DNA from: an uncultured Planctomycetia bacterium
Lineage (GTDB): Bacteria; Omnitrophota; Gorgyraeia; Tantalellales; Tantalellaceae
Direction of reading: 5' to 3'
Assembly: GCA_964527765.1 (NCBI GenBank)
Contig: CAZGQR010000001.1
Location: 25,961 to 89,960 of the forward strand
DNA length: 64,000 nt
Within the stretch, counting starts at the first letter, position 1, and each line of letters begins with the position of its first letter. This document shows positions 4,195-25,030 of this stretch, piece by piece. The position numbers and the translations under genes were made by a program. Below the pieces are notes generated by a model. That model had not been told where the DNA came from and did no database searches. It saw nothing but the letters and a program-made list of their open reading frames with translations.

Positions 4195-4935
4195 TTACAG
4201 AGAAAACTCGTAACCGAGCGCGGACAATACGAACAGTCCCGCGGTATCGCTTCTTAAGGTCCTTTTTCCCAAGGATATGAATTTGCAGTTGCCGCTGTCC
4301 GCCATCTCTGTTTCTTCCGGCGTAAAATCTCCTTCCGGCCCGATGAATACCAGGATCTTGCCCGACTTGAAGCCGGCCAGGGACTCCTTGATGGAAACGG
4401 TTTCACCGGCTAAACAGGCAAGCAGGGTCAGGTCATACAGGTCTATTTGTCCGGCTATTCCCCTGTACTCCGTGATCCCGTCGATCGCCGGAACATTTAC
4501 CCTACCGCACTGTTTTGAGGCCTCAATGGCTATTCTTTTCCATCTCTTGACCTTCCTTTTGCAGACCGCGGGATCCCTGGGCCTTGCGATCGTCCTTTCA
4601 CTGACCAGGGGGATCATCCGGGAAACGCCAAGTTCGGTCGCCTTTTCCACTATATAATCCATCCTGCCCTTCCTGGGAATGGCCTGGGCAAGAATGACCT
4701 CCGGGGCGCTTTCCGCGGGAGGTTTTTCCGTGCGCACGATCTCGACGATCATCTTCTTATCTTTCCTGTCCGCCTCTTTTATGAACCCTACATATTCCTT
4801 GCCTGTTCCGTCAAATACGACGATCTGGTCGCCGTCCTGCATCCTCATGACATCCAGGATGTGATGAGCTTCCCTTCCGTCGACCATGATCCTGTCTTTT
4901 CTTACATTTTCTTTCGGAACATAGAACCTTCTCAT
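4195..4935 (-). CDS. rsmE: 16S rRNA (uracil1498-N3)-methyltransferase RsmE
   Basis: 246-aa ORF with an RsmE-like N-terminal PUA-like region and a SPOUT C-terminal domain, adjacent to mtaB. Confidence 0.75.
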   Translation of the reverse strand: MRRFYVPKENVRKDRIMVDGREAHHILDVMRMQDGDQIVVFDGTGKEYVGFIKEADRKDKKMIVEIVRTEKPPAESAPEVILAQAIPRKGRMDYIVEKATELGVSRMIPLVSERTIARPRDPAVCKRKVKRWKRIAIEASKQCGRVNVPAIDGITEYRGIAGQIDLYDLTLLACLAGETVSIKESLAGFKSGKILVFIGPEGDFTPEETEMADSGNCKFISLGKRTLRSDTAGLFVLSALGYEFSL

Positions 4936-4943
4936 TCGTCCCT

Positions 4944-6482
4944 CTATTCCTTTATTTCTTTCTCACCGAATACTTCCGCGGTGAATACATAGATCTCACA
5001 GTCCCCGGTCTTCCATGCATCCGGAGAGATGCCGGCTTTATGCGCGCAGAGGCTGCTCATGAAGTGTTCCCTGTCCCACCCGGTCTCGTCGGCAACCTGC
5101 GGCAGATATACTCCGCTCCTCCATCCGCTTTTCACCATGACTCCGTGTTTCCCCATCTCGATCTCGTTGTAGTCGTCTATTTTTTTCATCGGCGATAAAG
5201 CCGATATTTCTACATCGATATCGTTCAGCTCCTCGAGCGTCACGGGCGGAAATCTGGGATCCTCGGTAGCGGCCGATATAGCCATGTCCCGCACGGTTAG
5301 ATAAAGGGGTCCCGTGGCGGCCATGTGTCCGATACATCCTCTCAGCTGCCCGCGCTCGTGCAGCGTCACGAACGCCCCCATGTCCTGCTCAAGCGCTTTA
5401 TCGCCCGCTTTCACGTCCAGACGCTTTCCCGTTTCAAGATAATGCCGTATGGTGTCCCGCGCTATCTTTAAGAGTTCTTCTTTTTGCTCACGACTGAACA
5501 TATCCCCTTCCTCCTCTTTCTCTGTTACCGCTTTCTCTTTTTTTCCGCTTTTTATGAATGCCGCGCTCAGATACCCCACAACCTTGTCTTTCGAGCCGGC
5601 GGTATCCCCGGAGTTCGCATATTTTAATATTTCAACTTTATCCGCCCCCAGTCTTTTGCAAGCCGACATGACCGAATAAACGGCACCATACCCGCACATA
5701 AGCTCGTGCCGTTTCTTCAGGCTGTAAAAGTACAGCGAATCCGGATCAAACGCCTTTATTATCCCGATCGTTTCCGCGTCTCTTTTGTTTGTAATATCAT
5801 AGGGCAAATAATGGCACATGTCCGTCGAGGCTATTAACACAAAATCTTTTTCATCGCGCAAAATGTCATAAAGCGCATTTGCCAAAAGCCGGCAATTTTC
5901 CAGTCTCTGGTCGCAAAGTGCGATCATCACCAGGCGCGCATCCTTTAATACCGTCTGGATAAACGGTATTTCCATCTCCACGGAATTTTCCGCAGTAAAG
6001 GCCTGGGGTATATCCTGTATATTCTCACTATAAGCGATGAGTTTATTCGTGATATCCGTGTCGATCACGGCTTCTCCCAGCGGTGTGACAAAAGTCTTAT
6101 CGGTAAAGACAGCAATGCGGTTGGGAAAATATTTCCTGTGAGTAAAACCTACCACTATGACCTTGTCGGGATTTCCGGCCATTATCGCTTTGTACGTGTA
6201 TGCAGCCACGGGCCCGGAGAACCTGAGCCCGGCATGGGGGGCTATGGCGCCCACGATCTCCCCTTCGATCCTGCCTACGCGTGCGTTGTGCAGATATCCC
6301 TCGAGCTCTGCCCTCAACTGAACAGGCGAGGCATTATACCAGGAACCTGCCAGATCGGCCTGCTTGGCATCAGCGCAGGCCCCGGCCATAACAAAAACAA
6401 TAACAAGAACTGCGAATAGAAAACGTCTGGCCATAAGATACTCCCTTACCCTGGATTTATGCTGAGCTTTGAGATGCTCCAT
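4944..6482 (-). CDS. Fusion of a Memo-like domain (AmmeMemoRadiSam protein B family) and an AMMECR1 domain (protein A family), with an N-terminal signal peptide or TM anchor
   Basis: 512-aa ORF. Residues about 40-305 are Memo-like (GSWY, IAPHAGLRFSG). Residues about 330-512 are AMMECR1 (GAFVTLHERGQLRGCIGH, VYLPQVADETGW). A hydrophobic N-terminus (FLFAVLVIVFVMAGACA-DA) makes M17, at coordinate 6434, an alternative start. Confidence 0.75.
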   Translation of the reverse strand: MEHLKAQHKSRVREYLMARRFLFAVLVIVFVMAGACADAKQADLAGSWYNASPVQLRAELEGYLHNARVGRIEGEIVGAIAPHAGLRFSGPVAAYTYKAIMAGNPDKVIVVGFTHRKYFPNRIAVFTDKTFVTPLGEAVIDTDITNKLIAYSENIQDIPQAFTAENSVEMEIPFIQTVLKDARLVMIALCDQRLENCRLLANALYDILRDEKDFVLIASTDMCHYLPYDITNKRDAETIGIIKAFDPDSLYFYSLKKRHELMCGYGAVYSVMSACKRLGADKVEILKYANSGDTAGSKDKVVGYLSAAFIKSGKKEKAVTEKEEEGDMFSREQKEELLKIARDTIRHYLETGKRLDVKAGDKALEQDMGAFVTLHERGQLRGCIGHMAATGPLYLTVRDMAISAATEDPRFPPVTLEELNDIDVEISALSPMKKIDDYNEIEMGKHGVMVKSGWRSGVYLPQVADETGWDREHFMSSLCAHKAGISPDAWKTGDCEIYVFTAEVFGEKEIKE

Positions 6483-8509: not shown

Positions 8510-9188
8510 TCAAGATGACATCCACTTCCTGCCATTCATCTGCTGCCGCGGCTTCTTTTCTCGGCTCAAAAATCCATCCCCTGACAAACTTCGAAGCTGC
8601 GATATCAAGCCGGGGATACCCGGTCGTAGTCAACGGTTCCACCTTCTTGACGTTCCCGCCGGCGTCTATCAATACCTTGACCCTGATCTTGAACGTCTCC
8701 TCGCCTCCGTAAAGAGCGCGCATTACAGAAGGGGCTTCGGGCCTGTAAATGACTTTTCTTTCTTTCGCCTGTCCGGTGTAATCAGTCCCCCATTTCCCCA
8801 ACACAAAATCATCCACATCCAGATCCAGGGTAAAATCGGGCACGGCCTTGGAGCCGGTCAAAAAACTCATTACAAGGGTGTCCATGTTGTTTTCCAGGTA
8901 ATCCGGGAATTCCTGAACGGTCGACCTTCTTTTCGGGGCCGCCACTTCCAGTTCCCTGCTCTGCGACGGCAAGAATATGTACCTGTAAGTAGTCATCACG
9001 ACCGGGTTCACGTTCTCCAGCATGATATCGAACGCTGTCTTTTTCAGGATCGGCCCGAGAAAATCGATACGGGTATAAGGATGCGCTCTCTTTATGTCAT
9101 CCGGGGCTATTATTGTCACCGCGGACATCCCCACAATATGCACACCCAGCGATATCAGCAGTGCTATCCTTAAATTCCTGCCTATCAT
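8496..9188 (-). CDS. tonB: TonB-family energy transducer (TonB C-terminal domain)
   Basis: ORF track 8496..9269. The probable start is the internal MIGRNLRIALLISLGVHIV TM anchor. The C-terminus (RVKVLIDAGGNVKKVEPLTTTGYPRLDIAASKFVRGWIFEP) is a TonB_C fold. Confidence 0.6.
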   Translation of the reverse strand: MIGRNLRIALLISLGVHIVGMSAVTIIAPDDIKRAHPYTRIDFLGPILKKTAFDIMLENVNPVVMTTYRYIFLPSQSRELEVAAPKRRSTVQEFPDYLENNMDTLVMSFLTGSKAVPDFTLDLDVDDFVLGKWGTDYTGQAKERKVIYRPEAPSVMRALYGGEETFKIRVKVLIDAGGNVKKVEPLTTTGYPRLDIAASKFVRGWIFEPRKEAAAADEWQEVDVILNARD

Positions 9189-9204
9189 GATTTCCCTTGT
9201 CGGT

Positions 9205-9597
9205 TTACTGCGTCGTGGCAATGTTGATCTGCCTGACATCAACCTGCCGGCAAATATCCCAGACCTCAATGACCTTACCCAGGTCCGATTTCTTATCCGC
9301 TCTTATCAGAAGCGGCTGGTCTTCCCGTGCCGCAACAGTTATGCGGGAGACGAGTTCATCTCCGCTAACGGGCCTTTCATTTATGAAAACCCCGTTATCC
9401 TCCGTGATCGTCACTATAAGCAATTCCTTGTGCAGGACCTCGCTGGTAACGGCCCTGGGCAGATTGACCCTTATCCCCGGCTGGAAGACAAAACTCGAGG
9501 TCAGCATAAAGAATATGAGCAGCAGGAATACCACGTCTATCAGCGGCGCGATATCCAGGCGCCCTTTTTCCAGAAATACTTTTCTTTTAAACTTCAT
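9205..9597 (-). CDS. exbD: ExbD/TolR biopolymer transport protein
   Basis: 130 aa with a single N-terminal TM (IDVVFLLLIFFM) and an ExbD periplasmic domain. Confidence 0.8.
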   Translation of the reverse strand: MKFKRKVFLEKGRLDIAPLIDVVFLLLIFFMLTSSFVFQPGIRVNLPRAVTSEVLHKELLIVTITEDNGVFINERPVSGDELVSRITVAAREDQPLLIRADKKSDLGKVIEVWDICRQVDVRQINIATTQ

Positions 9598-10219
9598 TTT
9601 CCTCTCTTTTTGTCCCGAGTATGTTTATGATGTCCGTCGCGCTTTTTTCCATCTCCAGCACGAAGCCGTCGACCTTGCTGACAAGAAAATTATATGCGAC
9701 GTATGTGGGTATCGCGACCGAAAGGCCCGCCACCGTAGTGATAAGAGCCTCCCAAATACCGCCTGCCAGGTCTCCGGGATTGATCGGCATCAGCACGATC
9801 GCCTTCTGCTCGATGACCTGGAACGCCCGCACCATCCCGGTCACGGTCCCCAGAAGCCCGAGAAGCGGAGATATGTGCGCTATAGTCGCCAGCGCGCCAA
9901 GGTTCTTCTCCAGGCGAGGTACTTCATGCAGGCCTGCATCTTCTATGGCTTCCTTTATTTCTATCCTGGGCCGATCATGTTTAAGGATGCCCGCTTTGAG
10001 TATGTGAGCTATGGGGCCGGGCATCGCATTGCACTTATCTATGGCCTCCATGATCTTGTTCCTTCTCAGCGTCTCGGCTATGTCCTCCATGAATTCTTCG
10101 GTGTTGATCTTGGCCCGCCTAAGATGCCATAACCTTTCCAGTACCACCGCAAGCGCTATGACGGAGCACAAAAGTATAAGAAACATCAACGGTCCGCCTT
10201 TAATTATCAGTCCCCACAT
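9587..10219 (-). CDS. exbB: MotA/TolQ/ExbB proton channel
   Basis: 210 aa with three TM helices and the ExbB/TolQ C-terminal region (LGLLGTVTGM). Confidence 0.8.
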   Translation of the reverse strand: MWGLIIKGGPLMFLILLCSVIALAVVLERLWHLRRAKINTEEFMEDIAETLRRNKIMEAIDKCNAMPGPIAHILKAGILKHDRPRIEIKEAIEDAGLHEVPRLEKNLGALATIAHISPLLGLLGTVTGMVRAFQVIEQKAIVLMPINPGDLAGGIWEALITTVAGLSVAIPTYVAYNFLVSKVDGFVLEMEKSATDIINILGTKREENEV

Positions 10220-10252
10220 ATCTTCCTCCTTTGATCGCTTCCGCGGTATGCC

Positions 10253-12700
10253 CTATCTGGCATAACGCTTCAGCAGTTTTATCTTTTCCTTAGCGTAATC
10301 CGCCTCCTGACCCTCGCCTTCACTCAGTTTCCGATATATATTGAACGCTCTCTCGTTCTTGCCGTGTTTTTCAAGAAGTTCCGCGCATTTGAGACGGGCA
10401 CGCGTGACCCAGAATCTTCCTTGAGGATATTTGTATTCCACCTTAAGATATTCCTCGATCGCCTCATCCTCCATGCCTGTCTTCTCATAACATTCCGCAA
10501 CATCGAACTGTATCTGGGCGTTCGACTCGGAATTTTCTTCCGTAAGAGCGACCTTGAAATACTCTATGGCCAGGACATATTTGCCCTGGATCTTCAATAT
10601 TGTCCCTATCCTGTTATTCGCGATGTTCGTTATGCTGCTCTCGGGATATTTTTTAATGAGGGTCTCATACCTGGGTACCGCCTTATCATAATCGCCCTCC
10701 TTTTTATATATGTCCCCGAGCGCCAGTATCGCCTGCGGTGTCCACTTGCTGAACGGACGCTGCTTTTCTATGCTTTCAAACTGAGCCAGACTTTGATCCG
10801 CCATGTTATTGTCATACAGCACCCACCCCAACCAGTAAGACGCATTGTCCGCAAACGGGCTGTCCGGATATTCTTCTATTACCTCAGAAAAATATTTCTG
10901 TGCGTTATTAAAATCCCCTTTGCCGTAAAAGTATTCACCGAACCAGAGTTTTATCCCGGGAACGAAATGGCTCTCTCCGCTTTCCTTAAGCATCCTCTTG
11001 AATATCCCCAGCGCTTTCTTCTCCTTCCCCATCTTGTAATAAGCCCAGCCGGAATGATACTGCGCCCTGAGAAGGAGATCCTTATCCTTCGTGGAGCTGA
11101 TGATCTTTTCATAGATCTCCGCGGCAGCTTCATAGTCGCCGCCGTTATACATGGAATTGGCTTTCTGCAGAGCGGCTTCATTCCGAAGATTACTGCCCGG
11201 GAATTCTCTGAGTATGTGTTCAAACTGCCCTGCGGAGGTCCTGTAATCTCCCTTCTGCACGTAAAGCAGGCCAAGCTGATAATGGGCCTTGTCGAGAAGG
11301 GTTGACTCGGGAAAGTTCACCACCAGCGACTGAAAAGCAAGTATAGCAGCATCTTCCCTGTTTAACTTTTTCAATATGGACCCCACCTCATACTGCGCAT
11401 GATCCGCCAGCATGCTGTGCGGGAAGTTCCTGAGCACCCTGTCATAAACGTCAACGGCGCGTCCGTTCTCGCCGCGACCCTGAAGAATGTCCCCGATACT
11501 GCATAAAGCACTTACCACCAGGTCCTCATTGTCGGACAATTCCACCGTCTTATCATATTCTTCCAGCGCTTTTGCCTCATCTCCCGCACCAAGATACGCC
11601 CATCCCAGATTGTAATGCATTTCGGATGAAAACTCCCCGTTGGGAAACTTTTCAAGAGCTTCACGGTATATCCTGATGGTATCGGGTATGTTCCCGCTTT
11701 TGTACAAGGCCTCACCCAGCCAGAAATACGCGTCATCGGTCCATTCGTTTTGCGGTATCTCGTAGATGACCTCCTGATATGCCTTCAGGGCTTTTCCGTC
11801 ATTGCCTTTCTTGAGATTGATGCGGGCGATCCCCATCAGCGCCGCGCTCCTGATCCGAGGATCGGTACTGTCATCTACGACTTGCCTGAACCATTCCTCG
11901 CTGCTATCCAGGTCCCCGCTCTGCAGGTAGGCCCTGGCCAGTTTATATTCAGCGATCACTTTTGGCGGTTTATTTTCACTACCGCGCAATGAATCTTTCA
12001 AGCTCGCGGCGGCTTCGGAAAAATTACCCAGCTTATAGTAACTGTCTCCCAGCATGTAATAAGCATCAAAAATATGCTCGCTCACCGGGTACTTTTCGGT
12101 AAATGCCTTTAATTCCGGAACCACGTCGGCATACCTGCCCGTCTTGTACAGAATCTCCGCGATCTTATACCGGGCTTTCACTGCCAGCTCTCTTTCCGGA
12201 TACAGCTGAATAACTTCGCGGAACGCCTCTATGGCCATGGGGTGTTCGCCAAGCTTTTCGTAACACCACGCCTGGGAATAACGGGAATACGGCACGTATT
12301 CACTCGTCGGATACGATTCGATCACCATTTGGTAATAGGCCAGGGCCTGTTCAAAGTCGCCCTCCTTGAAATAGACTTCGGCTATCCAATAAGTGGCGCG
12401 CGCGGCGAAATCGCCGTCCTTGAACCTTTCAAGCACAATATTGAATTCCGTAAGTGCCTTGGCGGGGGAAGATTTTTCATAATACACTCTTCCCAGAAGC
12501 GAACGCGCCTCACCCTCGACGTCTTTTGAGATGTCCAGCGCAAGCAGGGAGTTCAACTTGCTCTCCGCCAGATCATAAAAACCGTCCTTGACGGCTTTCC
12601 TGGCAAAATCGAGTTCGGGTTGAAACGTCTTTTCACCCGCTTCTGAAGGTAAACACCACAAGAACACAGCTATCGACACCAGATATATGATTTTCTTCAT
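10253..12700 (-). CDS. Secreted tetratricopeptide-repeat protein (815 aa)
   Basis: Signal peptide (MKKIIYLVSIAVFLWCLPSEA) followed by many TPR-like repeats (AxxYxxxG, W-LG-Y motifs). Confidence 0.75.
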   Translation of the reverse strand: MKKIIYLVSIAVFLWCLPSEAGEKTFQPELDFARKAVKDGFYDLAESKLNSLLALDISKDVEGEARSLLGRVYYEKSSPAKALTEFNIVLERFKDGDFAARATYWIAEVYFKEGDFEQALAYYQMVIESYPTSEYVPYSRYSQAWCYEKLGEHPMAIEAFREVIQLYPERELAVKARYKIAEILYKTGRYADVVPELKAFTEKYPVSEHIFDAYYMLGDSYYKLGNFSEAAASLKDSLRGSENKPPKVIAEYKLARAYLQSGDLDSSEEWFRQVVDDSTDPRIRSAALMGIARINLKKGNDGKALKAYQEVIYEIPQNEWTDDAYFWLGEALYKSGNIPDTIRIYREALEKFPNGEFSSEMHYNLGWAYLGAGDEAKALEEYDKTVELSDNEDLVVSALCSIGDILQGRGENGRAVDVYDRVLRNFPHSMLADHAQYEVGSILKKLNREDAAILAFQSLVVNFPESTLLDKAHYQLGLLYVQKGDYRTSAGQFEHILREFPGSNLRNEAALQKANSMYNGGDYEAAAEIYEKIISSTKDKDLLLRAQYHSGWAYYKMGKEKKALGIFKRMLKESGESHFVPGIKLWFGEYFYGKGDFNNAQKYFSEVIEEYPDSPFADNASYWLGWVLYDNNMADQSLAQFESIEKQRPFSKWTPQAILALGDIYKKEGDYDKAVPRYETLIKKYPESSITNIANNRIGTILKIQGKYVLAIEYFKVALTEENSESNAQIQFDVAECYEKTGMEDEAIEEYLKVEYKYPQGRFWVTRARLKCAELLEKHGKNERAFNIYRKLSEGEGQEADYAKEKIKLLKRYAR

Positions 12701-15556: not shown

Positions 15557-15627
15557 AGGGTATGATTGTAACATAAATATATTTACGTCACAACAAGTTA
15601 GTGATTTTCGCATTTGTGAAAATATAT

Positions 15628-15656
15628 TTGATTATTTTTAAAAAATGTAGTATATT
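15628..15656 (+). promoter_or_regulatory. Sigma-70-type promoter (TTGATT-N17-TATATT) for the XRE-cupin regulator gene
   Basis: The -35 is at 15628-15633, followed by a 17-nt spacer and the -10 at 15651-15656. An imperfect inverted repeat ATTTTCGCA-tt-TGTGAAAAT lies at 15604-15624, just upstream. Confidence 0.4.
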
Positions 15657-15708
15657 GTCAATATCGGAAAACAGCAAATACTTTTTGAGTTATCTCAAAG
15701 GAGGAAGT

Positions 15709-16260
15709 ATGAAAATAGGAAAAAGGATGCGTTTGTTGAGAAAAGAAAAGGATATCACGCTTGAAGAGCTTTCCGAGAAAAGCGGCGTGGCCCTGGCCAC
15801 CCTCAGCCGCATGGAAAACAACAAGATGGCGGGCACCCTGGCCTCCCATAACAAGATATGCAAGGCCCTCGGCGTCTCGATCTCCGAACTCTACCGCGAG
15901 CTCGAGGACGAAACCAAAACAGTCGAAGCGGTCCCGAAATACAAAAGAACGGAACACTTTATCCATGCCCGCAAGGCAAAATACGAACTCCTTGTCACGA
16001 AAACGCTCGACAAAAAGATAATGCCGCTAATGATGAAACTCGCAAGCGGAGGCAAAACACAAAAAGAACAAAATAAACCCGGCGTGGAAAAATTCATATA
16101 CATGATAGCCGGAACCCTTGAAGCGATTGTCGGCAACGAAACGCACACTCTAAAACGCGGTGACAGTCTCTATTTCGACGCTTCCCTCCCCCATGTATTC
16201 AAAAACAACGCCAAAACGGAAGCGGAGGCAATGTGCATTATTTCACCGCCGGCATTATGA
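15709..16260 (+). CDS. XRE-family HTH transcriptional regulator with a C-terminal cupin domain
   Basis: ORF track 15601..16260. The RBS AAGGAGGA precedes ATG at 15709 (MKIGKRMRLLRKEKDITLEELSEKSGV). The N-terminus is an HTH_3 domain and the C-terminus is a cupin (GDSLYFDASLPH). Confidence 0.75.
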   Translation: MKIGKRMRLLRKEKDITLEELSEKSGVALATLSRMENNKMAGTLASHNKICKALGVSISELYRELEDETKTVEAVPKYKRTEHFIHARKAKYELLVTKTLDKKIMPLMMKLASGGKTQKEQNKPGVEKFIYMIAGTLEAIVGNETHTLKRGDSLYFDASLPHVFKNNAKTEAEAMCIISPPAL

Positions 16261-16327
16261 TCGGTATGTCGTCATCCTGTAAGACTGGAAATCTATAACA
16301 TTGCTAATAAGCTTGAGGAGGAAAAAA

Positions 16328-16684
16328 ATGAATAAACAAAAAAAGATCCTGATCTGTGACGACGAAGAAGGAGTCCGGGAATCACTTAATCTGATACTCG
16401 AAGACATGTATAATCTTGATTTTGCTTCTTCGGGAGACGAAGCTATACAAAAAGCTAAAAATCAAAAGTACGATGGAGTATTGCTGGATATCAAAATGCC
16501 CGCAAAAGACGGCCTTGAAACCCTGGAAGAGCTCCGGCAAATATCTCCCGACGTGAAAGTCATCATAGTCACCGGATATCAAAGCGTAGAAACCGCCGCA
16601 AAAGCCGTCCAACTGGGCGCAATGGACTACATCACCAAACCTTTTGAGAGCGATGAGGTAAAGGAAAAGATTGGGAGAATTTAA
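16328..16684 (+). CDS. Response regulator, receiver domain only (CheY-like)
   Basis: RBS GAGGAGG precedes MNKQKKILICDDEEGVRESL. The phospho-acceptor pattern DD...D(LLDIKMP)...T...K is present and there is no output domain. Confidence 0.8.
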   Translation: MNKQKKILICDDEEGVRESLNLILEDMYNLDFASSGDEAIQKAKNQKYDGVLLDIKMPAKDGLETLEELRQISPDVKVIIVTGYQSVETAAKAVQLGAMDYITKPFESDEVKEKIGRI

Positions 16685-16757
16685 AGTATTGCAAAAGAAA
16701 TAAATTTGGGATAGCACTAAAAAACTCAATTAAGTATCCATTAGAGTATTGTTTATA

Positions 16758-18383
16758 ATGATTAACTTATATGGCATATCTAACATACTTACTACAATAA
16801 CTAGCATGGCTATGGCCCTATTCGTCTATACAAAAGGCTATAGAAGCAAATTATGCAAAACATGGTCAATTTTTGCCATTTGTGTCGCTATTTATGGATT
16901 TGGCGCGTATATGGCATCTGGTTCTAGAAACTCATTATCAGCATTTTTTTGGTGGCAAATTTCCTATATAGGCGTTATCATGCTACCTGCCTTATTTATA
17001 CATTTTGTTTATGTTTTTTTAAATATCAAACGAGCTTACATTATTAGAATTGTATACATTTTAAGTTTAATAGTGTTAGCTGCGGATATTTTTAGTAAAA
17101 ATTTGTTTGTTGGAAATGTTAGTTTATTATTCACAAATTCGAAATGGTTTACCCCAGCTTGGTGGATTTATCCCCCCGGCCCCCTGCACATCTTCTACAC
17201 TCTTTTCTTGTATATTGGATTACTAATATATGCTCATGTTGAATTGATTAAAGCATATAAAAATTCTGGGCACCTTAAACAACAACAAATCAAGTACTTT
17301 TTCTTTGCTACAACATTGGGCTTTGTCGGAGGTGGAACTTCCTATTTGCCATGCTTTGGCATAAATGTATATCCTGTTTTGAATATAACTGTACCTTTAT
17401 ATCCGCTAATTATGACTTATGCTATTATCCGCCATCAACTTATGGATATAGAAGTTATAATCAAAAAAACTCTTATTTATTCAGTGCTAATATCTGTTAT
17501 AACAATTCTTTATTTCATTATTGTTTATACCTTGGAAAAGATCTTTAGCATCATTGTAGGATATTATTCTATGCCATTAGCCATAACTATCATTACCTTC
17601 TTTTCAATAATATTTATCCCCTTAAAAAACAAAATTCAAAAATTTATTGATAAATATTTCTTCCATGGCTCCATAGATCAGATAGATGAGGAAAACATCA
17701 AGCTTCGCGAAGAACTTCAGAAAGCCGAAAAGCTAAAGGCGGTAGCTACCCTTGCCGCAGGTATGGCGCATGAGATAAAAAACCCTCTTACATCGATCAA
17801 AACCTTTACAGAATACATTTCTAAAAAGAAAACTGACCCGGAATTTCTTGAAAAGTTCCAAAAAATCGTCAGCGGTGAAGTTAACAGGATAAATTATATC
17901 GTCAAACAACTGCTGGAGTTTTCTAAACCCAGCGATCTCCAGCTTAAAGAAACCGGCATCGATAGTCTGCTGGATGAAACGTTGGATCTATTGAATAATG
18001 ATTTTCTGAAACATAACATAAAAATCGAAAAATGTTACTCTCCTCTGCCCTCGATCAAAGTTGACCCTTCACAAATGAAACAAGTCTTTCTCAATCTCTT
18101 ACTGAATGCCATAGACTCGATGGAAACTGGCGGGATTATCACGGCAACCATTAAACCAGGCAAAAACGATAATATAATAATAAAAATCAAAGATTCAGGT
18201 AAGGGCATAGAAAAAGAAGATCTCAAGCATATTTTCGACCCGTTTTTCAGCAAGAAAAACGGTGGAACAGGCCTCGGCCTCAGCGTAGTTCATGGAATTA
18301 TCGAAAAACACGGCGGAAAGATAAGCGTCGAAGGCGTCCCAGGCCATGGAACATCTTTCCAGATCAATCTACCAATCGATTAA
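16758..18383 (+). CDS. Sensor histidine kinase with an N-terminal polytopic (7-9 TM) membrane domain, HisKA_7TM-type
   Basis: ORF track 16749..18383 (TTG); the first ATG is at 16758. It has 8-9 hydrophobic helices, then the HisKA H-box (MAHEIKNPLTSIK) and an HATPase_c domain (GGTGLGLS). The loop YAIIRHQLMDIEVIIKKTLIY is shared with the second kinase. Confidence 0.8.
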   Translation: MINLYGISNILTTITSMAMALFVYTKGYRSKLCKTWSIFAICVAIYGFGAYMASGSRNSLSAFFWWQISYIGVIMLPALFIHFVYVFLNIKRAYIIRIVYILSLIVLAADIFSKNLFVGNVSLLFTNSKWFTPAWWIYPPGPLHIFYTLFLYIGLLIYAHVELIKAYKNSGHLKQQQIKYFFFATTLGFVGGGTSYLPCFGINVYPVLNITVPLYPLIMTYAIIRHQLMDIEVIIKKTLIYSVLISVITILYFIIVYTLEKIFSIIVGYYSMPLAITIITFFSIIFIPLKNKIQKFIDKYFFHGSIDQIDEENIKLREELQKAEKLKAVATLAAGMAHEIKNPLTSIKTFTEYISKKKTDPEFLEKFQKIVSGEVNRINYIVKQLLEFSKPSDLQLKETGIDSLLDETLDLLNNDFLKHNIKIEKCYSPLPSIKVDPSQMKQVFLNLLLNAIDSMETGGIITATIKPGKNDNIIIKIKDSGKGIEKEDLKHIFDPFFSKKNGGTGLGLSVVHGIIEKHGGKISVEGVPGHGTSFQINLPID

Positions 18384-18391
18384 TCCGGCTA

Positions 18392-19714
18392 TTACACTGT
18401 ATTGCGTAATTTCCCCTTTTTGTATGCCAGCAGGAAAGCGCTTACGATTATAGGATCGAACTGCGTCCCTGAATTGTCCTTGATTATCTGAACAGCAATT
18501 TCTGCCATTTTTTTCTGGCGGTAAGGTCTGTCGCTGGTTATTGCATCAAAAGTATCTGCAACAGAGATTATGCGGGAAATAAACGGTATCTCTTCGCCCT
18601 TTAGACCATCCGGATATCCGGCACCGTCAAACCTTTCATGATGGGCACGCACTTCCTTGGCGATATCCCCCAATTCCTTTATGGGATTAAGTATTGCCGA
18701 CCCTGTGATTGAGTGCTCTTTCACTTTTTCGTATTCTTCCTTAGTCAATTGACTGCTCTTGTTCAAAACACTGTCCGGAACGCCGATCTTTCCAACATCA
18801 TGAAGCAACGCCGCTAGATGAAGTGTCTCTTTGAAGTTTTTATATGCCTTTGCTTCAGGGACATCCTCAAGTTCCCCTCCAATGGCCAATGCATATTGCG
18901 TAACACGCTCGGTATGGCCGTGCGTGTAAAGATCTCTTGCGTCTATAGCGGCTGCCAGGGAAATAGCTGTATGAATGAATATGCGATGTTCCCTTTCATA
19001 AAGACTGTGGACCTCGTAGATCTTATCCTGAAGGTCTTGTATAAGCTGCGCATTTGCAAGTGCCATGGCCACATCATTGGCAAGCGTTGTGAAAAACCCT
19101 ATTTCCTGTCTGGAAAATTTCATATTAGACAGTTTCTTTCCCAGGACAAAGACACCTATAAGATCTTTTTTATAATAGATCGGTATACAGATATTGGCCT
19201 TTAAAAGTTCCATCTGTCTGATAGTCAGCTCGATCAATTCAGCGAGTTCCTCATCCTTTTTAAGGTTCTCATCTCTCTGCAGAATATCAAGAAGTCCTTT
19301 ATACTCGATATCTCCTGTTTCTGATATCTTGTAATTGTACCGTTCATTAAACATCCGGATGAGGGGATTCTCAAACGTAAGCCGTATAAATCCTACCGGT
19401 ATCTTAACGCCTTCCGCACCCTTGCTATCGATAAGTATAAAAGAATCCTTGTCTTTGCGGTACAGGAGCATAGCCGTATGTGTAACTTTTACCTGTTCGT
19501 CTATGATCCTGACTATCATACGTATAAGGCGCTCGGGCTTTTTGAACCGTATCATGGTGCGAGAAGCGTTCTCCAGAAAGAATTGGTAATCCAATTCCGG
19601 TTCTTGTCTCTTCTGGACACTTTCCGAATCAATGGGGATCAGAGCACCGTCACAATTCTTCATTTTTTCGACGATCCAATCCTGTAGCTTTAACCAGTTA
19701 TCTTCGTATGACAT
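18392..19714 (-). CDS. GAF domain - HD-GYP phosphodiesterase (c-di-GMP hydrolase family)
   Basis: 440 aa with a GAF-like N-terminal half. The HD-GYP motifs are HGHTERV...HDVGK...HHERFDGAGYP. Confidence 0.8.
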   Translation of the reverse strand: MSYEDNWLKLQDWIVEKMKNCDGALIPIDSESVQKRQEPELDYQFFLENASRTMIRFKKPERLIRMIVRIIDEQVKVTHTAMLLYRKDKDSFILIDSKGAEGVKIPVGFIRLTFENPLIRMFNERYNYKISETGDIEYKGLLDILQRDENLKKDEELAELIELTIRQMELLKANICIPIYYKKDLIGVFVLGKKLSNMKFSRQEIGFFTTLANDVAMALANAQLIQDLQDKIYEVHSLYEREHRIFIHTAISLAAAIDARDLYTHGHTERVTQYALAIGGELEDVPEAKAYKNFKETLHLAALLHDVGKIGVPDSVLNKSSQLTKEEYEKVKEHSITGSAILNPIKELGDIAKEVRAHHERFDGAGYPDGLKGEEIPFISRIISVADTFDAITSDRPYRQKKMAEIAVQIIKDNSGTQFDPIIVSAFLLAYKKGKLRNTV

Positions 19715-19726
19715 CTTTTCTCCTAA

Positions 19727-20101
19727 CTACTTTTCCATTTTAATCTGCTCTGCAACCGTAAGAACAGTCCTCTCAAGCTGTTCAAGCAAAAGCGGCTTGG
19801 TGATGTACTCTGTTACCCCATGATGTTTTGCCTCCTCGGCTTTTTCCACATCTTCAACCGCCGTGATTATTATTACTTTTTTGGTGCTATCTTTTTTGCG
19901 GATCGCTTTAAGCGCCTCTATGCCATCCATGACCGGCATTTTTATATCCAGGAGGATTATATCCGGATTTATGGACTTTACTATGCTAAGAGCCTCTTTC
20001 CCGTCATAAGCGACAGATACTTCAAAATTCCTTTCTTTAAAGAAATTCTTCACAAAATCACACACATCCACTTCATCATCAACAACTAGTAGCTTCAGCA
20101 T
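19727..20101 (-). CDS. Response regulator, receiver domain only
   Basis: 124 aa: MLKLLVVDDEVDV...LLDIKMPVMDG...T...K, with no output domain. Confidence 0.8.
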   Translation of the reverse strand: MLKLLVVDDEVDVCDFVKNFFKERNFEVSVAYDGKEALSIVKSINPDIILLDIKMPVMDGIEALKAIRKKDSTKKVIIITAVEDVEKAEEAKHHGVTEYITKPLLLEQLERTVLTVAEQIKMEK

Positions 20102-20114
20102 GATATTTCTCCTC

Positions 20115-20492
20115 CTATTTATTCACCTTTGCGGCTCTATTAACAAGTTCCTCAAGAGATTTCAGGCTAGTTATGGGTTTTTCGACAAACGCATAAGCGC
20201 CTTTTTTCAATAAACGTTCTTTAGTCTTCCCGGGATCCCTGTACGCTGTTATAAAAATAACCTCAATATCTGCATTCAACTTTTTTATTTCTTCCATCAC
20301 TTTCTCGCCGTTAAGACCGGCCATCCTCAAATCAAGTAGAACAATATCGTATTTTTTCTGCCGCAAAAGCCCTAGCCCTCTATCGCCTCCCGATGTTGCA
20401 TCTATCTCATAACCCCTTGGTTCAAAATATTGTTTCAGCAAATCCGTAAAGCTTATTTCATCATCAATCGACAAAATTCTCGGCTTTTTCAT
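20115..20492 (-). CDS. Response regulator, receiver domain only
   Basis: 125 aa: RILSIDDEISF...LLDLRMAGLNG, with no output domain. Confidence 0.8.
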   Translation of the reverse strand: MKKPRILSIDDEISFTDLLKQYFEPRGYEIDATSGGDRGLGLLRQKKYDIVLLDLRMAGLNGEKVMEEIKKLNADIEVIFITAYRDPGKTKERLLKKGAYAFVEKPITSLKSLEELVNRAAKVNK

Positions 20493-20525
20493 CTTATTCT
20501 TTCTGCTTCAAGCACTAATTCTGCC

Positions 20526-22643
20526 TTAACTAGGCTGCACGGCATTAAAACTGAGACTAAAACGGGTTCCATTCCCAAGCTCACTTTGAACGCTTATATG
20601 CCCATTATTTCTTTCAACGATCTGCTTTACAATAAAAAGTCCGAGTCCGGCACCTCTACCCGGTTCTTTGGTAGTAAAAAACGGATTAAATATCTGACCC
20701 AAATGGTGCTTGCTTATTCCGACACCCGAATCTTCAATATCAATATAGACCCTTTTATTATTGCCTGATGCTCGTATGACGATTTTCCCATTTCCTTTGA
20801 TGGACTGGGCAGCATTTCTTACAATGTTGAAGAATATTTCCTGCAGCTGCTTCCGGTCCGCTGAAATGCATGGGAGGTCTTTTTTGATCTCTTTAGTAAT
20901 AATAATGTTTTCCATTTTTAAATCATGCTCTACAAGAGATATAACTTCATCCAATTCTTTTTCCACCTGAACATTACCCGCCATTTCTCCCTTTGCAGGC
21001 TTTGCAAAAGAAGAAAGTTTTTTAGTTATAACTGTAGCTCTGTCTGTCTCGTTCATAACTTTTTTCATTATTTCCTGCGCCTTTTCAAGTAATTCCTCCG
21101 GACTCTTGCCCTTGTAAACCCCGTCCTTCAGATTTAAAAGAAACATCTCGCATTGCCCGCGCGCTATCCCCAGGGGATTACAGATCTCGTGGTTTATGCC
21201 GGCGGAAAGAGTGCCTATGACTGCCATCTTCTCTCTCTGCGCCGCCTGGGCTTGGGCTTCCGAAAGTTTCTCGAAAAGCTGGGCATTGGTTATGGCTATG
21301 GAAAGCGTCCTTGCGAGAGGCAAAAGTATATCAATATCGTCCTGCGTGTATTCCTCGTCAGATTTCTTTTGCCCCAAAGACAATATTCCAACCATATTTT
21401 TATGGTGCATTAGCGGAATAACCAGAGCCGCGTTTAATTCGTGCATTTTCTTTTCTATATCGGTACCTACAAACTTTTTGCGTGCAGGGTCTTCCAAAAG
21501 AATATGTTTACCACTTCTTCGCATATAGGAAATGAGGTCTTCTTTATCGCTTAATTTATATGTAGTATTTTCTGGTTTACCAGACACCGATGCAGCTGTT
21601 CTGAATCCTTCTTTTCCTTCATCATAAAGCATTATAGAAGCATTATCTAATTTCACTATCTCCGCCAGCTTATTTACCGTAAGATTAACCAGCATGTTAA
21701 GATCAAGAACCATAAGTACCTCGTCAGAAAATGTTCTCAAAAGCTGCCTATAATCATATTTTTTCTGGAATAAGTACTTATCGGTAGTATTTCTTAAGAA
21801 ACTTTCAAGCGGACGAAGCATGAGAACCACTATCAATATAGAAGGTACCATTGCAATCCAGCGATTTCGAACCACATTTTCGAATACGGCAGATCCCAAA
21901 TAAGCAAAGCTCGCAAAAACCGCATAAGCAGCTACAAAAAGACCGGCAAAAATGAGGGTCTTTTTGACAATGACCTCGATGTCCATGAGCTGGTGCTTAA
22001 CAATTGCATATGCTACAATCCCTATATACACGCTTATCAAAATATTTGCATATGGCGGGAACTTTAGTCCATACCACAAAGGCCAATTATTTGCCCCTCC
22101 GAAAAAACCCACTATAGCTGCTAAAGTAAAATATCTTATTTGCATTTTGCGTCTAGAAGATCCAATATTTGCATTTTTCACCAAAAAAAAGAATCCGTAA
22201 AAACATTGAAAAAACCAAAACAATAAATAGAAATTAAAAAGAGTGGTTGGCTCTGGCCAATATCCAAAATTATATTTAGTGACAATATTGTGATATAAGT
22301 CCCCATGTATATTCGCCGCTATAAAGTAAATATTTAATAAGGCACATATTGCTAAAGATCGCTTTTGTTGCTCAAATATATTTAAAAAAACAAAAACAAA
22401 AAACAAATAAGCTAAACTTATTAGGATAAAACCTGTTACCAATATTTTAAACCAGAAAACAGCCATGTTTTTAGGTTCAGCAATTTGCCAAAAAAAATAA
22501 CCCAGGCTATAAAGAGCTACGCTTGCGTTTAACCAAAAATAAACAATATTTTGTATATTTCTTTTATTTTTTAAAAAAACAAAAATACCTAAACTAATAC
22601 AAGCTAAAAAATTTAGCATCCCTGTTAATGCCAAATAAGTCAT
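20526..22643 (-). CDS. Sensor histidine kinase: polytopic N-terminal membrane domain (HisKA_7TM-type) + GAF + HisKA + HATPase_c
   Basis: 705 aa with at least 7 TM helices and a GAF-like region. The H-box is INHEICNPLG and the ATPase motif is GAGLGLFIVKQIV. It is a paralog of the 16758..18383 kinase. Confidence 0.8.
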   Translation of the reverse strand: MTYLALTGMLNFLACISLGIFVFLKNKRNIQNIVYFWLNASVALYSLGYFFWQIAEPKNMAVFWFKILVTGFILISLAYLFFVFVFLNIFEQQKRSLAICALLNIYFIAANIHGDLYHNIVTKYNFGYWPEPTTLFNFYLLFWFFQCFYGFFFLVKNANIGSSRRKMQIRYFTLAAIVGFFGGANNWPLWYGLKFPPYANILISVYIGIVAYAIVKHQLMDIEVIVKKTLIFAGLFVAAYAVFASFAYLGSAVFENVVRNRWIAMVPSILIVVLMLRPLESFLRNTTDKYLFQKKYDYRQLLRTFSDEVLMVLDLNMLVNLTVNKLAEIVKLDNASIMLYDEGKEGFRTAASVSGKPENTTYKLSDKEDLISYMRRSGKHILLEDPARKKFVGTDIEKKMHELNAALVIPLMHHKNMVGILSLGQKKSDEEYTQDDIDILLPLARTLSIAITNAQLFEKLSEAQAQAAQREKMAVIGTLSAGINHEICNPLGIARGQCEMFLLNLKDGVYKGKSPEELLEKAQEIMKKVMNETDRATVITKKLSSFAKPAKGEMAGNVQVEKELDEVISLVEHDLKMENIIITKEIKKDLPCISADRKQLQEIFFNIVRNAAQSIKGNGKIVIRASGNNKRVYIDIEDSGVGISKHHLGQIFNPFFTTKEPGRGAGLGLFIVKQIVERNNGHISVQSELGNGTRFSLSFNAVQPS

Positions 22644-24016
22644 ATTATTTCTTTCCTAATAATGAAAAATAAAATAATGCCTGATTTATCTCTATGAACA
22701 TCAACATTTATTTTCCTTGCCTGTAAACTTTTTTTTATTAAGTCATCTAAATTTTTTCTAGCTCTAAAATAAAAATTCCAATCACAGAACCAATTTGGAG
22801 GTAATGGCTTGTATTTTAACGTATCTTTATGCGCGATAATTAAACGTCCCGCTTCAGCCACATATTTATCAAACCATATATTTAATAACTTTCCTGATAT
22901 TCTATCGGGCAGATAATCCATTAAACCTGTAGTATAAACCAAATCATTTTCCCCTATAATTTTAGAAAAATTTGCTCCATTAGTTATAAATTCCAAAACA
23001 TCATTTTTAAAATAATTAAAGGATGCATAGCTACTGAACTTTTCTACTGCTCCCCTTGTAAATAAAACAGCTTCACTATCTTGATCGAGCAAATTTATAA
23101 TAATTTCTTTTCCATTATCTTTGATTTTCTGTAAAAAATGGGCATCATGAAATAACTCTCTGATTTCTTTGCCGGAACCACACGCAATATTTAAAATTCT
23201 TACTTTTTTAAGAGGTGTATTTAAAATAAAGGTTTTTAAATAGTCTCTCATCCAATCCTTCCTCGATCTAACCGCCACTGCATATTTATTATTTTGAAAA
23301 TATACATCAAAACAGCGCCCAATTCCCTTTGACAGAACTTTAGTATCATATATATGTTCCATAATTCTATAATCACCAGGATATCCCCTAGGCTTATCAT
23401 AAGATCTCTTAACGATGTAACTTTTATAAGCCCAACAGCTCACTAATTCTCGAAATTCTTTCTTAATCCTTCGCACAACTATTTTGTTACTAACAGAATT
23501 TTCAAATTCATTAGCCTTTTCCATAATGTCTTCTGTTAAACTATGCAATAATCTTTCGGCTTCTGTTTCTTCAATCATATTGTGTGCAATTTTATTCATT
23601 AACTCAAATAAATCGAAAAAATACTGTAATACATATTTCGAAAAAATTTTTACTTGTCTTCGCTCATTTTTATTTTTGACTTCCCTTATTACATCCTTGA
23701 ATTTTCTAAATATTAAACTTTTTCGAATTAAATTAAGTATTTCAATATCAATATCCTCATATTTAGCCCCATAAACATATTTCCATTCTTTTGAAATTTC
23801 GCGCTCCCATATGATGTTAAACTTTATGTGCACTTTGCCATACGGCAACTTTAAGTCCCCAGATAATCTTGATGATTTTAATTGCTGCATTGTCACAAAA
23901 CACAATCCATCATCATTCAAATTAATACTTCTCGCACATTGCTTTCCCAACTTTAAAGGAAATTCTGATTTAATTCTTGGGGTCATTCTGTTATCAATAG
24001 TCGCAATCTCAAACAT
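22640..24016 (-). CDS. Putative PilZ-like N-terminal domain fused to a class I SAM-dependent methyltransferase
   Basis: ORF track 22640..24136, but the first 120 nt overlap the upstream HTH gene in another frame. The likely start is MFEIATIDNR at 24016, whose ATG overlaps the HTH stop (ATGTTTGA). The N-terminus has RMTPR (RxxxR) and INLNDDGLCF, a degenerate D/NxSxxG. The C-terminus has methyltransferase motif I (VRILNIACGSGKEIREL) and a post-I acidic residue (LLDQD). About 29% GC. Confidence 0.5.
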   Translation of the reverse strand: MFEIATIDNRMTPRIKSEFPLKLGKQCARSINLNDDGLCFVTMQQLKSSRLSGDLKLPYGKVHIKFNIIWEREISKEWKYVYGAKYEDIDIEILNLIRKSLIFRKFKDVIREVKNKNERRQVKIFSKYVLQYFFDLFELMNKIAHNMIEETEAERLLHSLTEDIMEKANEFENSVSNKIVVRRIKKEFRELVSCWAYKSYIVKRSYDKPRGYPGDYRIMEHIYDTKVLSKGIGRCFDVYFQNNKYAVAVRSRKDWMRDYLKTFILNTPLKKVRILNIACGSGKEIRELFHDAHFLQKIKDNGKEIIINLLDQDSEAVLFTRGAVEKFSSYASFNYFKNDVLEFITNGANFSKIIGENDLVYTTGLMDYLPDRISGKLLNIWFDKYVAEAGRLIIAHKDTLKYKPLPPNWFCDWNFYFRARKNLDDLIKKSLQARKINVDVHRDKSGIILFFIIRKEII

Positions 24017-24209
24017 CTTTTCCTCTGCTACTTTTTTGACTTTTTTCCTGTTTTTCAATCCACTCATCGATCGTTTCTTTTTTGAAGCGCCATTTGGAGC
24101 CAACTTTGAACCCGGGGATCTTGCCCTCCTGGGCATGCTTGTAAATTGTGACGACTTTCATCTTGAGATAGTCGGCCAATTCGTTAATTGTCATTACTGA
24201 ACTCGCCAT
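24009..24209 (-). CDS. Excisionase-family (MerR-like) helix-turn-helix DNA-binding protein
   Basis: 66 aa: MTINELADYLKMKVVTIYKHAQEGKIPGFKVGSKWRFKKETIDEWI, the typical excisionase/Xis-type HTH. Confidence 0.65.
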   Translation of the reverse strand: MASSVMTINELADYLKMKVVTIYKHAQEGKIPGFKVGSKWRFKKETIDEWIEKQEKSQKSSRGKDV

Positions 24210-24580
24210 ATTTCCCCCTATGATAAATTGATTTAATTTACTATATTGTGCTTTTTACTGCTGTTTATTGATATAGAATGGTTTAATTTAATATGGTTTA
24301 ACATAGATTGTAAAATCGCGAAATAATATATAATCATAAAACCACTATAAACTGTGGACTTTTCAACAAAAAAACTATTACGATTTGCTACCTTTTGGTG
24401 TATTTTCCGACAATTTACCCTAATCTTTTATAGATTGGTACAAATTGGTCGGCGTTGTTAAAGTATAATGGGGAAAAGACAAAAGTCAAGAGCATGAAAA
24501 AAGTTTTTGAGTATATACCCATTTGATGTGGACCACTTTTTACGGTACACAATATATGGTGTTAAAAATGGCCTTAAAAA

Positions 24581-25030
24581 TTAGAATATTTTGAGGTATA
24601 GCAGAATTTGCAGAATCAGATTGGTGTATATAGCAGCTACAAGATCATCCAGCATTATCCCCCATCCCCCGCCCATTTTTTCCACGGATCTCATGGGAGG
24701 AACCTTTATAATGTCTATAATTCGGTACAGGATAAAGCCAGTAAGAATGGTGGAAGTCCTAATAGGAACGAAGAGAAACACAAGAAATATAGAGGCGAAT
24801 TCATCAATAACAACGATCGAGGGGTCTTTGTAGCCAATTTCCGCTTCCACCTTGCCCGAGGATACTGTGCCGGCGATAAAAAAGACGGCAAAAGCAATCA
24901 AATATATGACCAGATTTCCGTGCAGGGCCAGGCAAAGGACCAGACCGGCCAGGCTTCCCAGCGTACCCGGGACAATACTGATACGGCCTATCCCCAATAC
25001 AGTTGCGATAAGATCATGTGCCTTTTTCAT
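24581..25030 (-). CDS. pgpA: Phosphatidylglycerophosphatase A
   Basis: 149-aa membrane protein with a GIGRISIVPGTLGSLAGL motif. Confidence 0.75.
   Translation of the reverse strand: MKKAHDLIATVLGIGRISIVPGTLGSLAGLVLCLALHGNLVIYLIAFAVFFIAGTVSSGKVEAEIGYKDPSIVVIDEFASIFLVFLFVPIRTSTILTGFILYRIIDIIKVPPMRSVEKMGGGWGIMLDDLVAAIYTNLILQILLYLKIF

Follow-up and report, generated by a model that had tools for sequence, protein, structure and literature searches.

A minus-strand gene in the 64,000-nucleotide stretch of Omnitrophota DNA analysed here (the window; contig CAZGQR010000001.1, positions 25,961 to 89,960) encodes a protein of 458 amino acids (aa) in which an N-terminal PilZ domain is fused to a C-terminal class I S-adenosylmethionine (SAM)-dependent methyltransferase. 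PilZ is the classical receptor domain for cyclic diguanylate (c-di-GMP). The PilZ fold and the RxxxR motif of the protein are established; binding of c-di-GMP is plausible from its sequence but not assured, since the serine of the second PilZ motif, D/NxSxxG, is an asparagine here. We favour, at a little under an even chance, the reading that the protein is an enzyme regulated in cis, a c-di-GMP-gated synthase of a methylated signal that would be sensed by the histidine kinase encoded next to it. The gene and its parts are as follows.

22640 to 24016, minus strand: PilZ::class I SAM methyltransferase fusion, 458 aa, range including the stop codon (open reading frame [ORF], homologues, AlphaFold2 model)
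23681 to 24016, minus strand: PilZ domain, residues 1-112, six beta strands and a C-terminal helix (homologue Pfam matches, profile, Foldseek)
23975 to 23989, minus strand: RxxxR motif, RMTPR, residues 10-14 (alignment)
23906 to 23923, minus strand: variant D/NxSxxG motif, NLNDDG, residues 32-37 (alignment)
23219 to 23680, minus strand: all-helical linker and substrate cap, residues 113-266, carrying KPRGYPGD-x7-Y (208-223) and AVRSR (248-252)
22643 to 23218, minus strand: class I (Rossmann) SAM-binding methyltransferase core, residues 267-458, with motif I RILNIACGSGK and post-I INLLDQD

The N-terminal PilZ domain

A database search returned 188 homologues, mostly of about 450 aa and mostly from Omnitrophota metagenome bins, many of which carried precomputed Pfam matches to PilZ and to methyltransferase models. 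Full-length sequences numbering 68 were aligned. When these were scanned singly, 65 of the 68 matched the Pfam PilZ model, with a best E value of 6.3e-14. R10, R14 and G37 were invariant throughout the alignment and position 32 was always D or N; the motifs are therefore not a product of chance. Position 34 was occupied by Ser in 59 sequences, by Asn in five (the window protein, P0004, P0005, P0006 and P0009), by Gly in two and by Cys in two. The canonical NxSxxG was present in P0002 and P0003, which are 51-52% identical to the window protein.

The best matches in the Protein Data Bank (PDB) of a sequence profile built from residues 1-115 were the PilZ domain of Alg44 (1.4e-6), Bacillus subtilis MotI/YpfA (1.9e-4) and another PilZ protein. 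The AlphaFold2 model of the same residues, with a predicted local distance difference test (pLDDT) score of 90.7, displayed six strands followed by a C-terminal helix at residues 91-114. Comparison of this model with the PDB by Foldseek returned PilZ domains as all of its top 31 matches, with a query-normalised template modelling score (TMq) of up to 0.71, among them MotI, MrkH, Alg44, BcsA, VCA0042, YcgR, PlzA and PP4397. A first-pass annotation of this DNA had proposed a PilZ-like N terminus, and the Pfam matches of the homologues, the profile and the fold comparison all bear it out. It placed RxxxR, NLNDDG, motif I and LLDQD where they were found. Its description of a degenerate D/NxSxxG fits at N32 and G37, but the serine is Asn in the window protein and four relatives.

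The methyltransferase half

The AlphaFold2 model of the full-length protein (pLDDT 93.7; predicted template modelling score, pTM, 0.89) comprised the PilZ barrel and helix at residues 1-112, a series of helices at 116-266 and a seven-stranded Rossmann domain at 271-455. In this model, the PilZ domain appears to be joined to the class I methyltransferase through its own C-terminal helix and the helical cap. Motif I (RILNIACGSGK) occupies residues 273-283 and post-I (INLLDQD) residues 307-313; A278 and G280 of NIACGSG and D311 of LLDQD, the acidic residue at the end of beta-2, were invariant. The seven-stranded Rossmann-like fold, the Gly-rich motif I and the acidic post-I are those of a class I SAM-dependent methyltransferase, in agreement with the first-pass assignment. 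Among the 68 homologues, Methyltransf_20 matched 55, Methyltransf_25 matched 42 and Methyltransf_12 matched 39.

The closest structure is PDB entry 3OCJ, helical substrate-binding domain included, a result on which three methods concur. It was the best Foldseek match (E 2.3e-9, target-normalised score [TMt] 0.57) and ranked first by sequence (7e-8) with a broad-family profile built from 47 diverse members of many phyla. The second PDB match of that profile was the CheR structure 5FTW (E 2.5e-7), in an alignment that covered mainly the Rossmann part. The window protein itself had neither a match to the CheR hidden Markov model (HMM) at cutoff nor a CheR-like fold, and when seven family members were scanned against NCBIfam, none matched a curated model, PhcB-like or otherwise. 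Entry 3OCJ shows BPP1064, the orthologue of Bordetella pertussis FmtB (BP2936), which is reported to be a membrane-associated fatty-acid O-methyltransferase, and the crystal held palmitate in the cavity of the helical substrate domain (PMC5426589).

Structural neighbours of the methyltransferase were mostly small-molecule methyltransferases, with no DNA methyltransferase in the top 60. Judged from the model, the enzyme is of the small-molecule type and its nearest characterised relative by structure is FmtB. The first-pass annotation had left the subfamily to be assigned by fold; the enzyme did not prove to be a common named one, the closest structure belonging to the little-studied FmtB family. 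The helical cap carries the family signature, K-P-R-G-Y-x-G-D-x7-Y, at residues 208-223. This signature and two further motifs, AVRxR (248-252) and GLxDYLP (364-370), were kept even in relatives 20-27% identical.

Operon layout and gene boundaries

The whole signalling operon lies on the minus strand and consists of six genes, in the order HTH_17, PilZ-methyltransferase, HisKA_7TM-GAF-HisKA-HATPase kinase, receiver (REC), REC and GAF-HD-GYP. In addition to the methyltransferase gene listed above, these are:

24009 to 24209, minus strand: helix-turn-helix (HTH) DNA-binding protein of the HTH_17 (excisionase/MerR-like) family, 66 aa, first gene of the operon (Pfam HTH_17 1.8e-17)
20526 to 22643, minus strand: sensor histidine kinase, 705 aa, with a HisKA_7TM membrane domain, GAF, HisKA and HATPase_c (Pfam)
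20115 to 20492, minus strand: single-domain receiver (CheY-like), 125 aa (Pfam Response_reg 4.3e-23)
19727 to 20101, minus strand: single-domain receiver (CheY-like), 124 aa (Pfam Response_reg 2.5e-29)
18392 to 19714, minus strand: predicted GAF-HD-GYP c-di-GMP phosphodiesterase, 440 aa, last gene of the operon (Pfam HD_5 1.6e-39, HD 1.4e-20, GAF 3e-6)

The HTH gene and the methyltransferase gene overlap by 8 nucleotides (nt) (24009-24016, ATGTTTGA), which is the coupling of the two genes noted in the first-pass annotation. On the minus strand the junction reads GCAGAGGAAAAGATGTTTGAG, with the start ATG of the methyltransferase gene inside the terminal GAT GTT TGA of the HTH gene. This ATG (24016-24014; product beginning MFEIATIDN) is preceded by a Shine-Dalgarno-like GAGGA 4 nt to its 5' side, and the gene ends at 22640, where its stop codon overlaps the ATG of the histidine kinase gene as ATGA (22640-22643). 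Gaps of 33 nt separate the kinase from the first receiver gene, 13 nt the two receiver genes and 12 nt the second receiver gene from the HD-GYP gene. The longest mechanical ORF, of 498 aa, begins at 24136 (MPRRARSPG) and crosses the HTH gene in a different frame. Because the 67 aligned homologues all begin no more than a few residues from RxxxR, and because the 458-aa product is what the gene callers of three independent assemblies predict, the 458-aa start is the correct one and the MPRRARSPG N terminus is an artefact, as had been suspected.

Both signature motifs of the GAF-HD-GYP protein, LHDVGK (HD) and HHERFDGAGYP (GYP), are intact. The two receivers had been described as orphans, a label that does not hold, as they share the operon with a histidine kinase. 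A promoter and terminator scan of 18000-24700 gave 21 candidates against a shuffled expectation of 21.3, and so no excess.

The signalling island (window 16000-25000) is AT-rich, with a GC content of 0.29-0.43 per kb against 0.49-0.54 (about 0.51) in the flanks, and the PilZ-methyltransferase gene has the lowest GC of the island (0.30). A second, convergent signalling unit occupies the plus strand at 15601-18383; the same arrangement also follows the cassette in locus L004.

15601 to 16260, plus strand: HTH_3-cupin regulator
16301 to 16684, plus strand: small ORF, over which gene calls in L001-L003 place a 118-aa receiver on the opposite strand
16749 to 18383, plus strand: paralogous HisKA_7TM histidine kinase

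Conservation of the cassette

Twelve loci with varied neighbourhoods were examined, their methyltransferases being 31-100% identical to the window protein. A HisKA_7TM protein was encoded in the cassette in all 12, and immediately downstream of the methyltransferase in 10. In L008 the HisKA_7TM gene lies two genes upstream. In L010, where the family methyltransferase lacks PilZ, the HisKA_7TM domain is fused to HD-GYP with no kinase (9065-11221). Because of this kinase-free fusion, the seven-transmembrane (7TM) sensor, rather than the kinase, is suggested to be the constant partner of the enzyme. The fused gene of L010 lies downstream of the methyltransferase and two ORFs, one of which is a second methyltransferase.

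Receiver genes flanked the methyltransferase in 11 of the 12 loci; L139 stops at a contig edge just past the sensor gene. The order REC, PilZ-methyltransferase, 7TM kinase, REC was seen in L007, L137 and L138, and L136 has the first three of these with no receiver called downstream. An HD-GYP gene lies in or adjoins the cassette in the window, L004, L005 and L138. The window, L004, L005 and L006 have the HTH_17 gene directly upstream of the methyltransferase, and in L008 it is the first gene of the operon. Fused forms were also found: HTH_17 is joined to the PilZ-methyltransferase in P0008 (532 aa), and REC is joined to its N terminus in proteins of 587-589 aa (P0037, P0062, P0098 and P0111). 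To judge from these sequences, the fusions tie the upstream HTH and receiver proteins functionally to the enzyme.

Acyl-carrier-protein (PP-binding) genes lie inside the cassette in L006 (10604-10855) and L137 (4267-4569), as does an aldehyde dehydrogenase gene in L008 (1888-3444). These neighbours are consistent with an acyl or fatty-acid substrate. In L004 and L005 the cassette occupies the same chromosomal position as in the window, between pgsA-pgpA and uvrA, and the methyltransferases are 41-44% identical to that of the window. Since this position is common to such distantly related loci, the cassette is old and resident rather than recently inserted.

Family size and other inputs to the methyltransferase core

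An exhaustive HMMER search of 1.84 billion representative sequences found 6,580 proteins at E<=1e-3, of which 1,122 were at E<=1e-30. Full-length PilZ-methyltransferases made up about 70 of the best 150; the rest were PilZ-less proteins of about 350 aa or had longer N termini. PilZ-methyltransferases are thus a populous, uncharacterised family, mostly of Omnitrophota, and database labels for them already exist ('PilZ domain-containing protein' at NCBI, or 'class I SAM-dependent methyltransferase'). The first-pass annotation had called the architecture unfamiliar. The literature agrees to the extent that no paper was found on a PilZ-methyltransferase fusion or on the KPRGYxGD methyltransferase family, the nearest concept being MapZ-CheR1; the architecture is not rare, however, as the large family already labelled by NCBI shows.

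A search for a DNA pattern encoding the KPRGYxGD signature, biased to CGS arginine codons, returned at least 120 genome loci. Nearly all were genuine, with 228-275 residues after the motif, and they came from Rhizobiales, Myxococcota, Planctomycetota, Acidobacteriota, Betaproteobacteria, spirochaetes including Leptospira, Bdellovibrio, Streptomyces and others. Long N termini were present in 33 of the loci listed and were clustered by similarity. One cluster held 16 of the 33. Two of its members, from a cyanobacterium (L016) and Sorangium (L048), are Pfam-confirmed fusions to the cyclic-nucleotide-binding domain cNMP_binding (4e-13 and 5e-17), and the other 14, from Planctomycetota, Acidobacteriota, Myxococcota and others, were placed by their N-terminal sequence. 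A further 14 of the 33 have a beta-rich N-terminal domain without family assignment. Relatives with this domain sit with genes for a SiaB-like kinase and a SiaC-like phosphoprotein (L046, L071 and L114), and a PP2C/SpoIIE phosphatase gene adjoins such a relative in L071 and L067. The place of the methyltransferase in these cassettes is that of the diguanylate cyclase SiaD in the SiaABCD system of Pseudomonas. One more of the 33 is a PilZ-methyltransferase from a Bdellovibrionales genome (L102). A class III adenylate/guanylate cyclase-domain protein is encoded immediately after it (4309-5694).

Methyltransferase-only relatives of about 345 aa occur on Rhizobium-type megaplasmids (L012, 4728-5765; L014, 4680-5726), divergent from a GGDEF-EAL gene in both cases and, in L014, also beside a diguanylate cyclase gene. 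The core is also found as a gene on its own, away from any kinase; examples come from Rhizobium, Pantoea and Deinococcus beside a fatty-acid desaturase gene. As far as sequences and gene neighbourhoods can tell, the core has been wired repeatedly to second-messenger and phosphorylation inputs and so behaves as a regulated output domain.

One homologue, P0048, carries the KEGG name of PhcB at JGI. The Ralstonia enzyme of that name makes methyl 3-hydroxy-fatty-acid signals that are sensed by PhcS (PMC10576176). No Burkholderiaceae phc locus was among the signature matches listed, and tblastn of P0048 against plasmids found methyltransferase-only relatives alone, none of them from Ralstonia or Cupriavidus. 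It is possible, though we hold it with some doubt, that the KPRGYxGD core is a widespread output domain of signal transduction, a synthase of methylated and probably lipid-derived signals of which PhcB would be the one studied member. Its inputs would then differ by lineage: PilZ and c-di-GMP in the window and one Bdellovibrionales genome, cNMP-binding fusions in Myxococcota, Planctomycetota, Acidobacteriota and cyanobacteria, phosphorylation through REC, and SiaB/SiaC switching. The Omnitrophota version would be an autoinducer circuit that is gated by c-di-GMP and has a 7TM sensor kinase dedicated to it.

Proposed mechanism and alternative explanations

In the mechanism we propose, c-di-GMP would bind at the RxxxR/NxNxxG site and switch the methyltransferase. 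The enzyme would then methylate a hydrophobic carboxylate, probably fatty-acid-like because of the analogy with FmtB, to its methyl ester, and the membrane-embedded 7TM domain of the kinase would read this lipophilic product or a change in the membrane caused by it. The kinase would phosphorylate the receivers, and the HD-GYP enzyme would lower c-di-GMP and thereby close a feedback loop. What is shown directly is the architecture with its folds, the conserved motifs, the operon, the persistence of the cassette across loci and the repeated joining of the core to other signal-receiver modules.

Several observations weigh against this mechanism. A direct Pfam scan gave no PF07238 match for the window protein even at E<=1, and no methyltransferase model of Pfam or NCBIfam scored above its cutoff on it (Methyltransf_20, E 0.13; CheR, E 0.081). 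On sequence grounds, N34 in place of Ser may mean that c-di-GMP binding has been weakened or lost in this subclade. The activity of FmtB was shown in vivo only and not with the pure enzyme (PMC5426589). Binding of c-di-GMP by the window protein, switching of the enzyme by PilZ, the class of substrate and the role of the product as kinase ligand are steps that we infer. The parallel with PhcB draws on gene order and on the JGI name of P0048, and the adjacency of the genes fits equally well a kinase that acts upstream of the enzyme.

A kinase and receivers placed only upstream are the core of one alternative, in which the enzyme is a c-di-GMP-controlled metabolic or membrane output, such as lipid methylation, and its product is no signal. 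The REC-PilZ-methyltransferase fusions and the REC genes directly upstream do put a phosphorylation input on the enzyme, PilZ domains often gate biosynthetic enzymes (BcsA and Alg44, for example), and FmtB has no known signalling role. We nevertheless consider this somewhat unlikely: the presence of one particular sensor domain, HisKA_7TM, in 12 of 12 loci, in L010 fused to HD-GYP, is a more specific linkage than a generic upstream regulator would be expected to show, and the genes are ordered as in synthase-sensor pairs of the phcB-phcS kind. The tight and universal linkage to a sensor kinase and receivers would also suit a protein methyltransferase that modifies one of its cassette partners, whether the 7TM kinase, one of the receivers or the HD-GYP protein, in a c-di-GMP-dependent adaptation like the control of chemoreceptor methylation by MapZ and CheR1, though with both parts in one protein. 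CheR, the second-best PDB match of the broad-family profile, points the same way, as do the weak Pfam CheR matches of the window protein and of its relatives (1e-3 to 3e-4), the annotation of one relative as 'chemotaxis protein CheR' and a documented interaction between MapZ and CheR through the C-terminal helix of PilZ (10.1101/814665). However, none of the Pfam CheR matches reaches the cutoff, the fold ranking is not CheR-like, and the core also occurs in stand-alone genes with no kinase nearby. We judge this explanation unlikely.

The HTH gene raises the question of a mobile element or defence system, in which the HTH protein and methyltransferase would form a DNA-methylation or anti-phage module of the MADS type, or the remnant of an excisionase-methylase element. 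The 66-aa HTH protein matched the NCBIfam 'excise' domain (TIGR01764) at 56.9 bits, against a cutoff of 28.8, scored 74.4 bits with NCBIfam MADS1 and matched PADLOC mad1 at 2e-7, and the island around it is AT-rich (GC 0.29-0.43 against about 0.51). The MADS1 score falls under its cutoff of 80, however, and the methyltransferase had no PADLOC match; the MADS-type defence reading was rejected on these two counts. The absence of DNA methyltransferases from the top structural neighbours, most of which are small-molecule enzymes, further opposes it. The immediate neighbours, PgpA and PgsA on the upstream side and the kinase on the downstream side, include neither an integrase nor a recombinase, and the position between pgpA and uvrA is kept in genomes whose methyltransferases are only 41-44% identical. 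The defence or mobile-element explanation is accordingly very improbable, and we regard it as close to refuted. Because HTH_17 genes head signalling cassettes in several genomes and no integrase lies among the immediate neighbours, the HTH protein is more likely a regulator than an excisionase. Of the excisionase-type label it was first given, the HTH_17/'excise' match by HMM stands and only the fold family applies, since the immediate neighbourhood lacks the integrase and att sites that the function would call for.

Significance

Most of the enzymatic outputs known for PilZ are synthases of polysaccharides or regulators of motors and pili, and with a methyltransferase as output c-di-GMP signalling would gain a chemical consequence of a new kind. 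If the product is a diffusible methyl ester and the adjacent 7TM kinase reads it, c-di-GMP inside the cell would have direct control over a signal outside it or in the membrane. This would link second-messenger and quorum-type signalling in the Omnitrophota, for which metagenomes are almost the only source of knowledge. That the same core is coupled in many phyla to cNMP-binding, REC or partner-switch inputs points to a general output module, so far unstudied. Through this family, the biochemistry of signal synthases like PhcB and of HisKA_7TM, an orphan sensor domain, also becomes accessible to experiment.

Comparison with known systems

The PilZ proteins BcsA, Alg44, YcgR, MotI and MrkH share with the window protein the six-stranded barrel and C-terminal helix, and PilZ receptors likewise have an N-terminal RxxxR with D/N-x-x-x-x-G about 20 residues on. 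In BcsA cellulose synthase and in Alg44, PilZ is joined to or gates an enzyme, as it would be in the window protein, where the catalytic domain is in cis. The window protein differs from these receptors in its SAM methyltransferase output, in the change of the motif Ser to Asn and in the silence of the Pfam PilZ model. Its other half is closest in fold, helical substrate-binding domain included, to FmtB/3OCJ, but the identity is only 12-14%, and FmtB lacks PilZ and has an N-terminal hydrophobic segment. Unlike the window gene, fmtB is Bvg-regulated and lies outside any kinase cassette. The likeness to SiaABCD of Pseudomonas concerns only the relatives accompanied by SiaB-like kinase, SiaC-like phosphoprotein and PP2C genes and not the window; the beta-rich N-terminal domain of these relatives is a different one, with no similarity to the PilZ profile by hhalign.

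In Ralstonia the genes are ordered response regulator (prhX)-phcB-phcS-phcR-phcQ (PMC10788593). The order of response regulator, methyltransferase, membrane kinase and receiver is that of L007, L137 and L138, and in the window, L004-L007 and L136-L139, as in phc, genes for a membrane sensor kinase and response regulators come after that of the putative synthase. The window differs from phc in the input of its kinase, which is HisKA_7TM-GAF. An adaptive R22C substitution in Ralstonia PhcB affects a conserved residue outside the known methyltransferase domain, in an N-terminal region that is uncharacterised (PMC6989110). If PhcB had an N-terminal PilZ-like domain, R22 could be an arginine of its motif; a search of the literature turned up nothing that connects PhcB with c-di-GMP. 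The precedent closest in concept is MapZ-CheR1 of Pseudomonas aeruginosa, in which, as in our proposal, c-di-GMP acting through PilZ controls a SAM methyltransferase. There, the two are separate proteins, the enzyme is a CheR and the target is a chemoreceptor, whereas in the window a single protein contains both the PilZ domain and the methyltransferase, and the fold of the latter is not that of a CheR.

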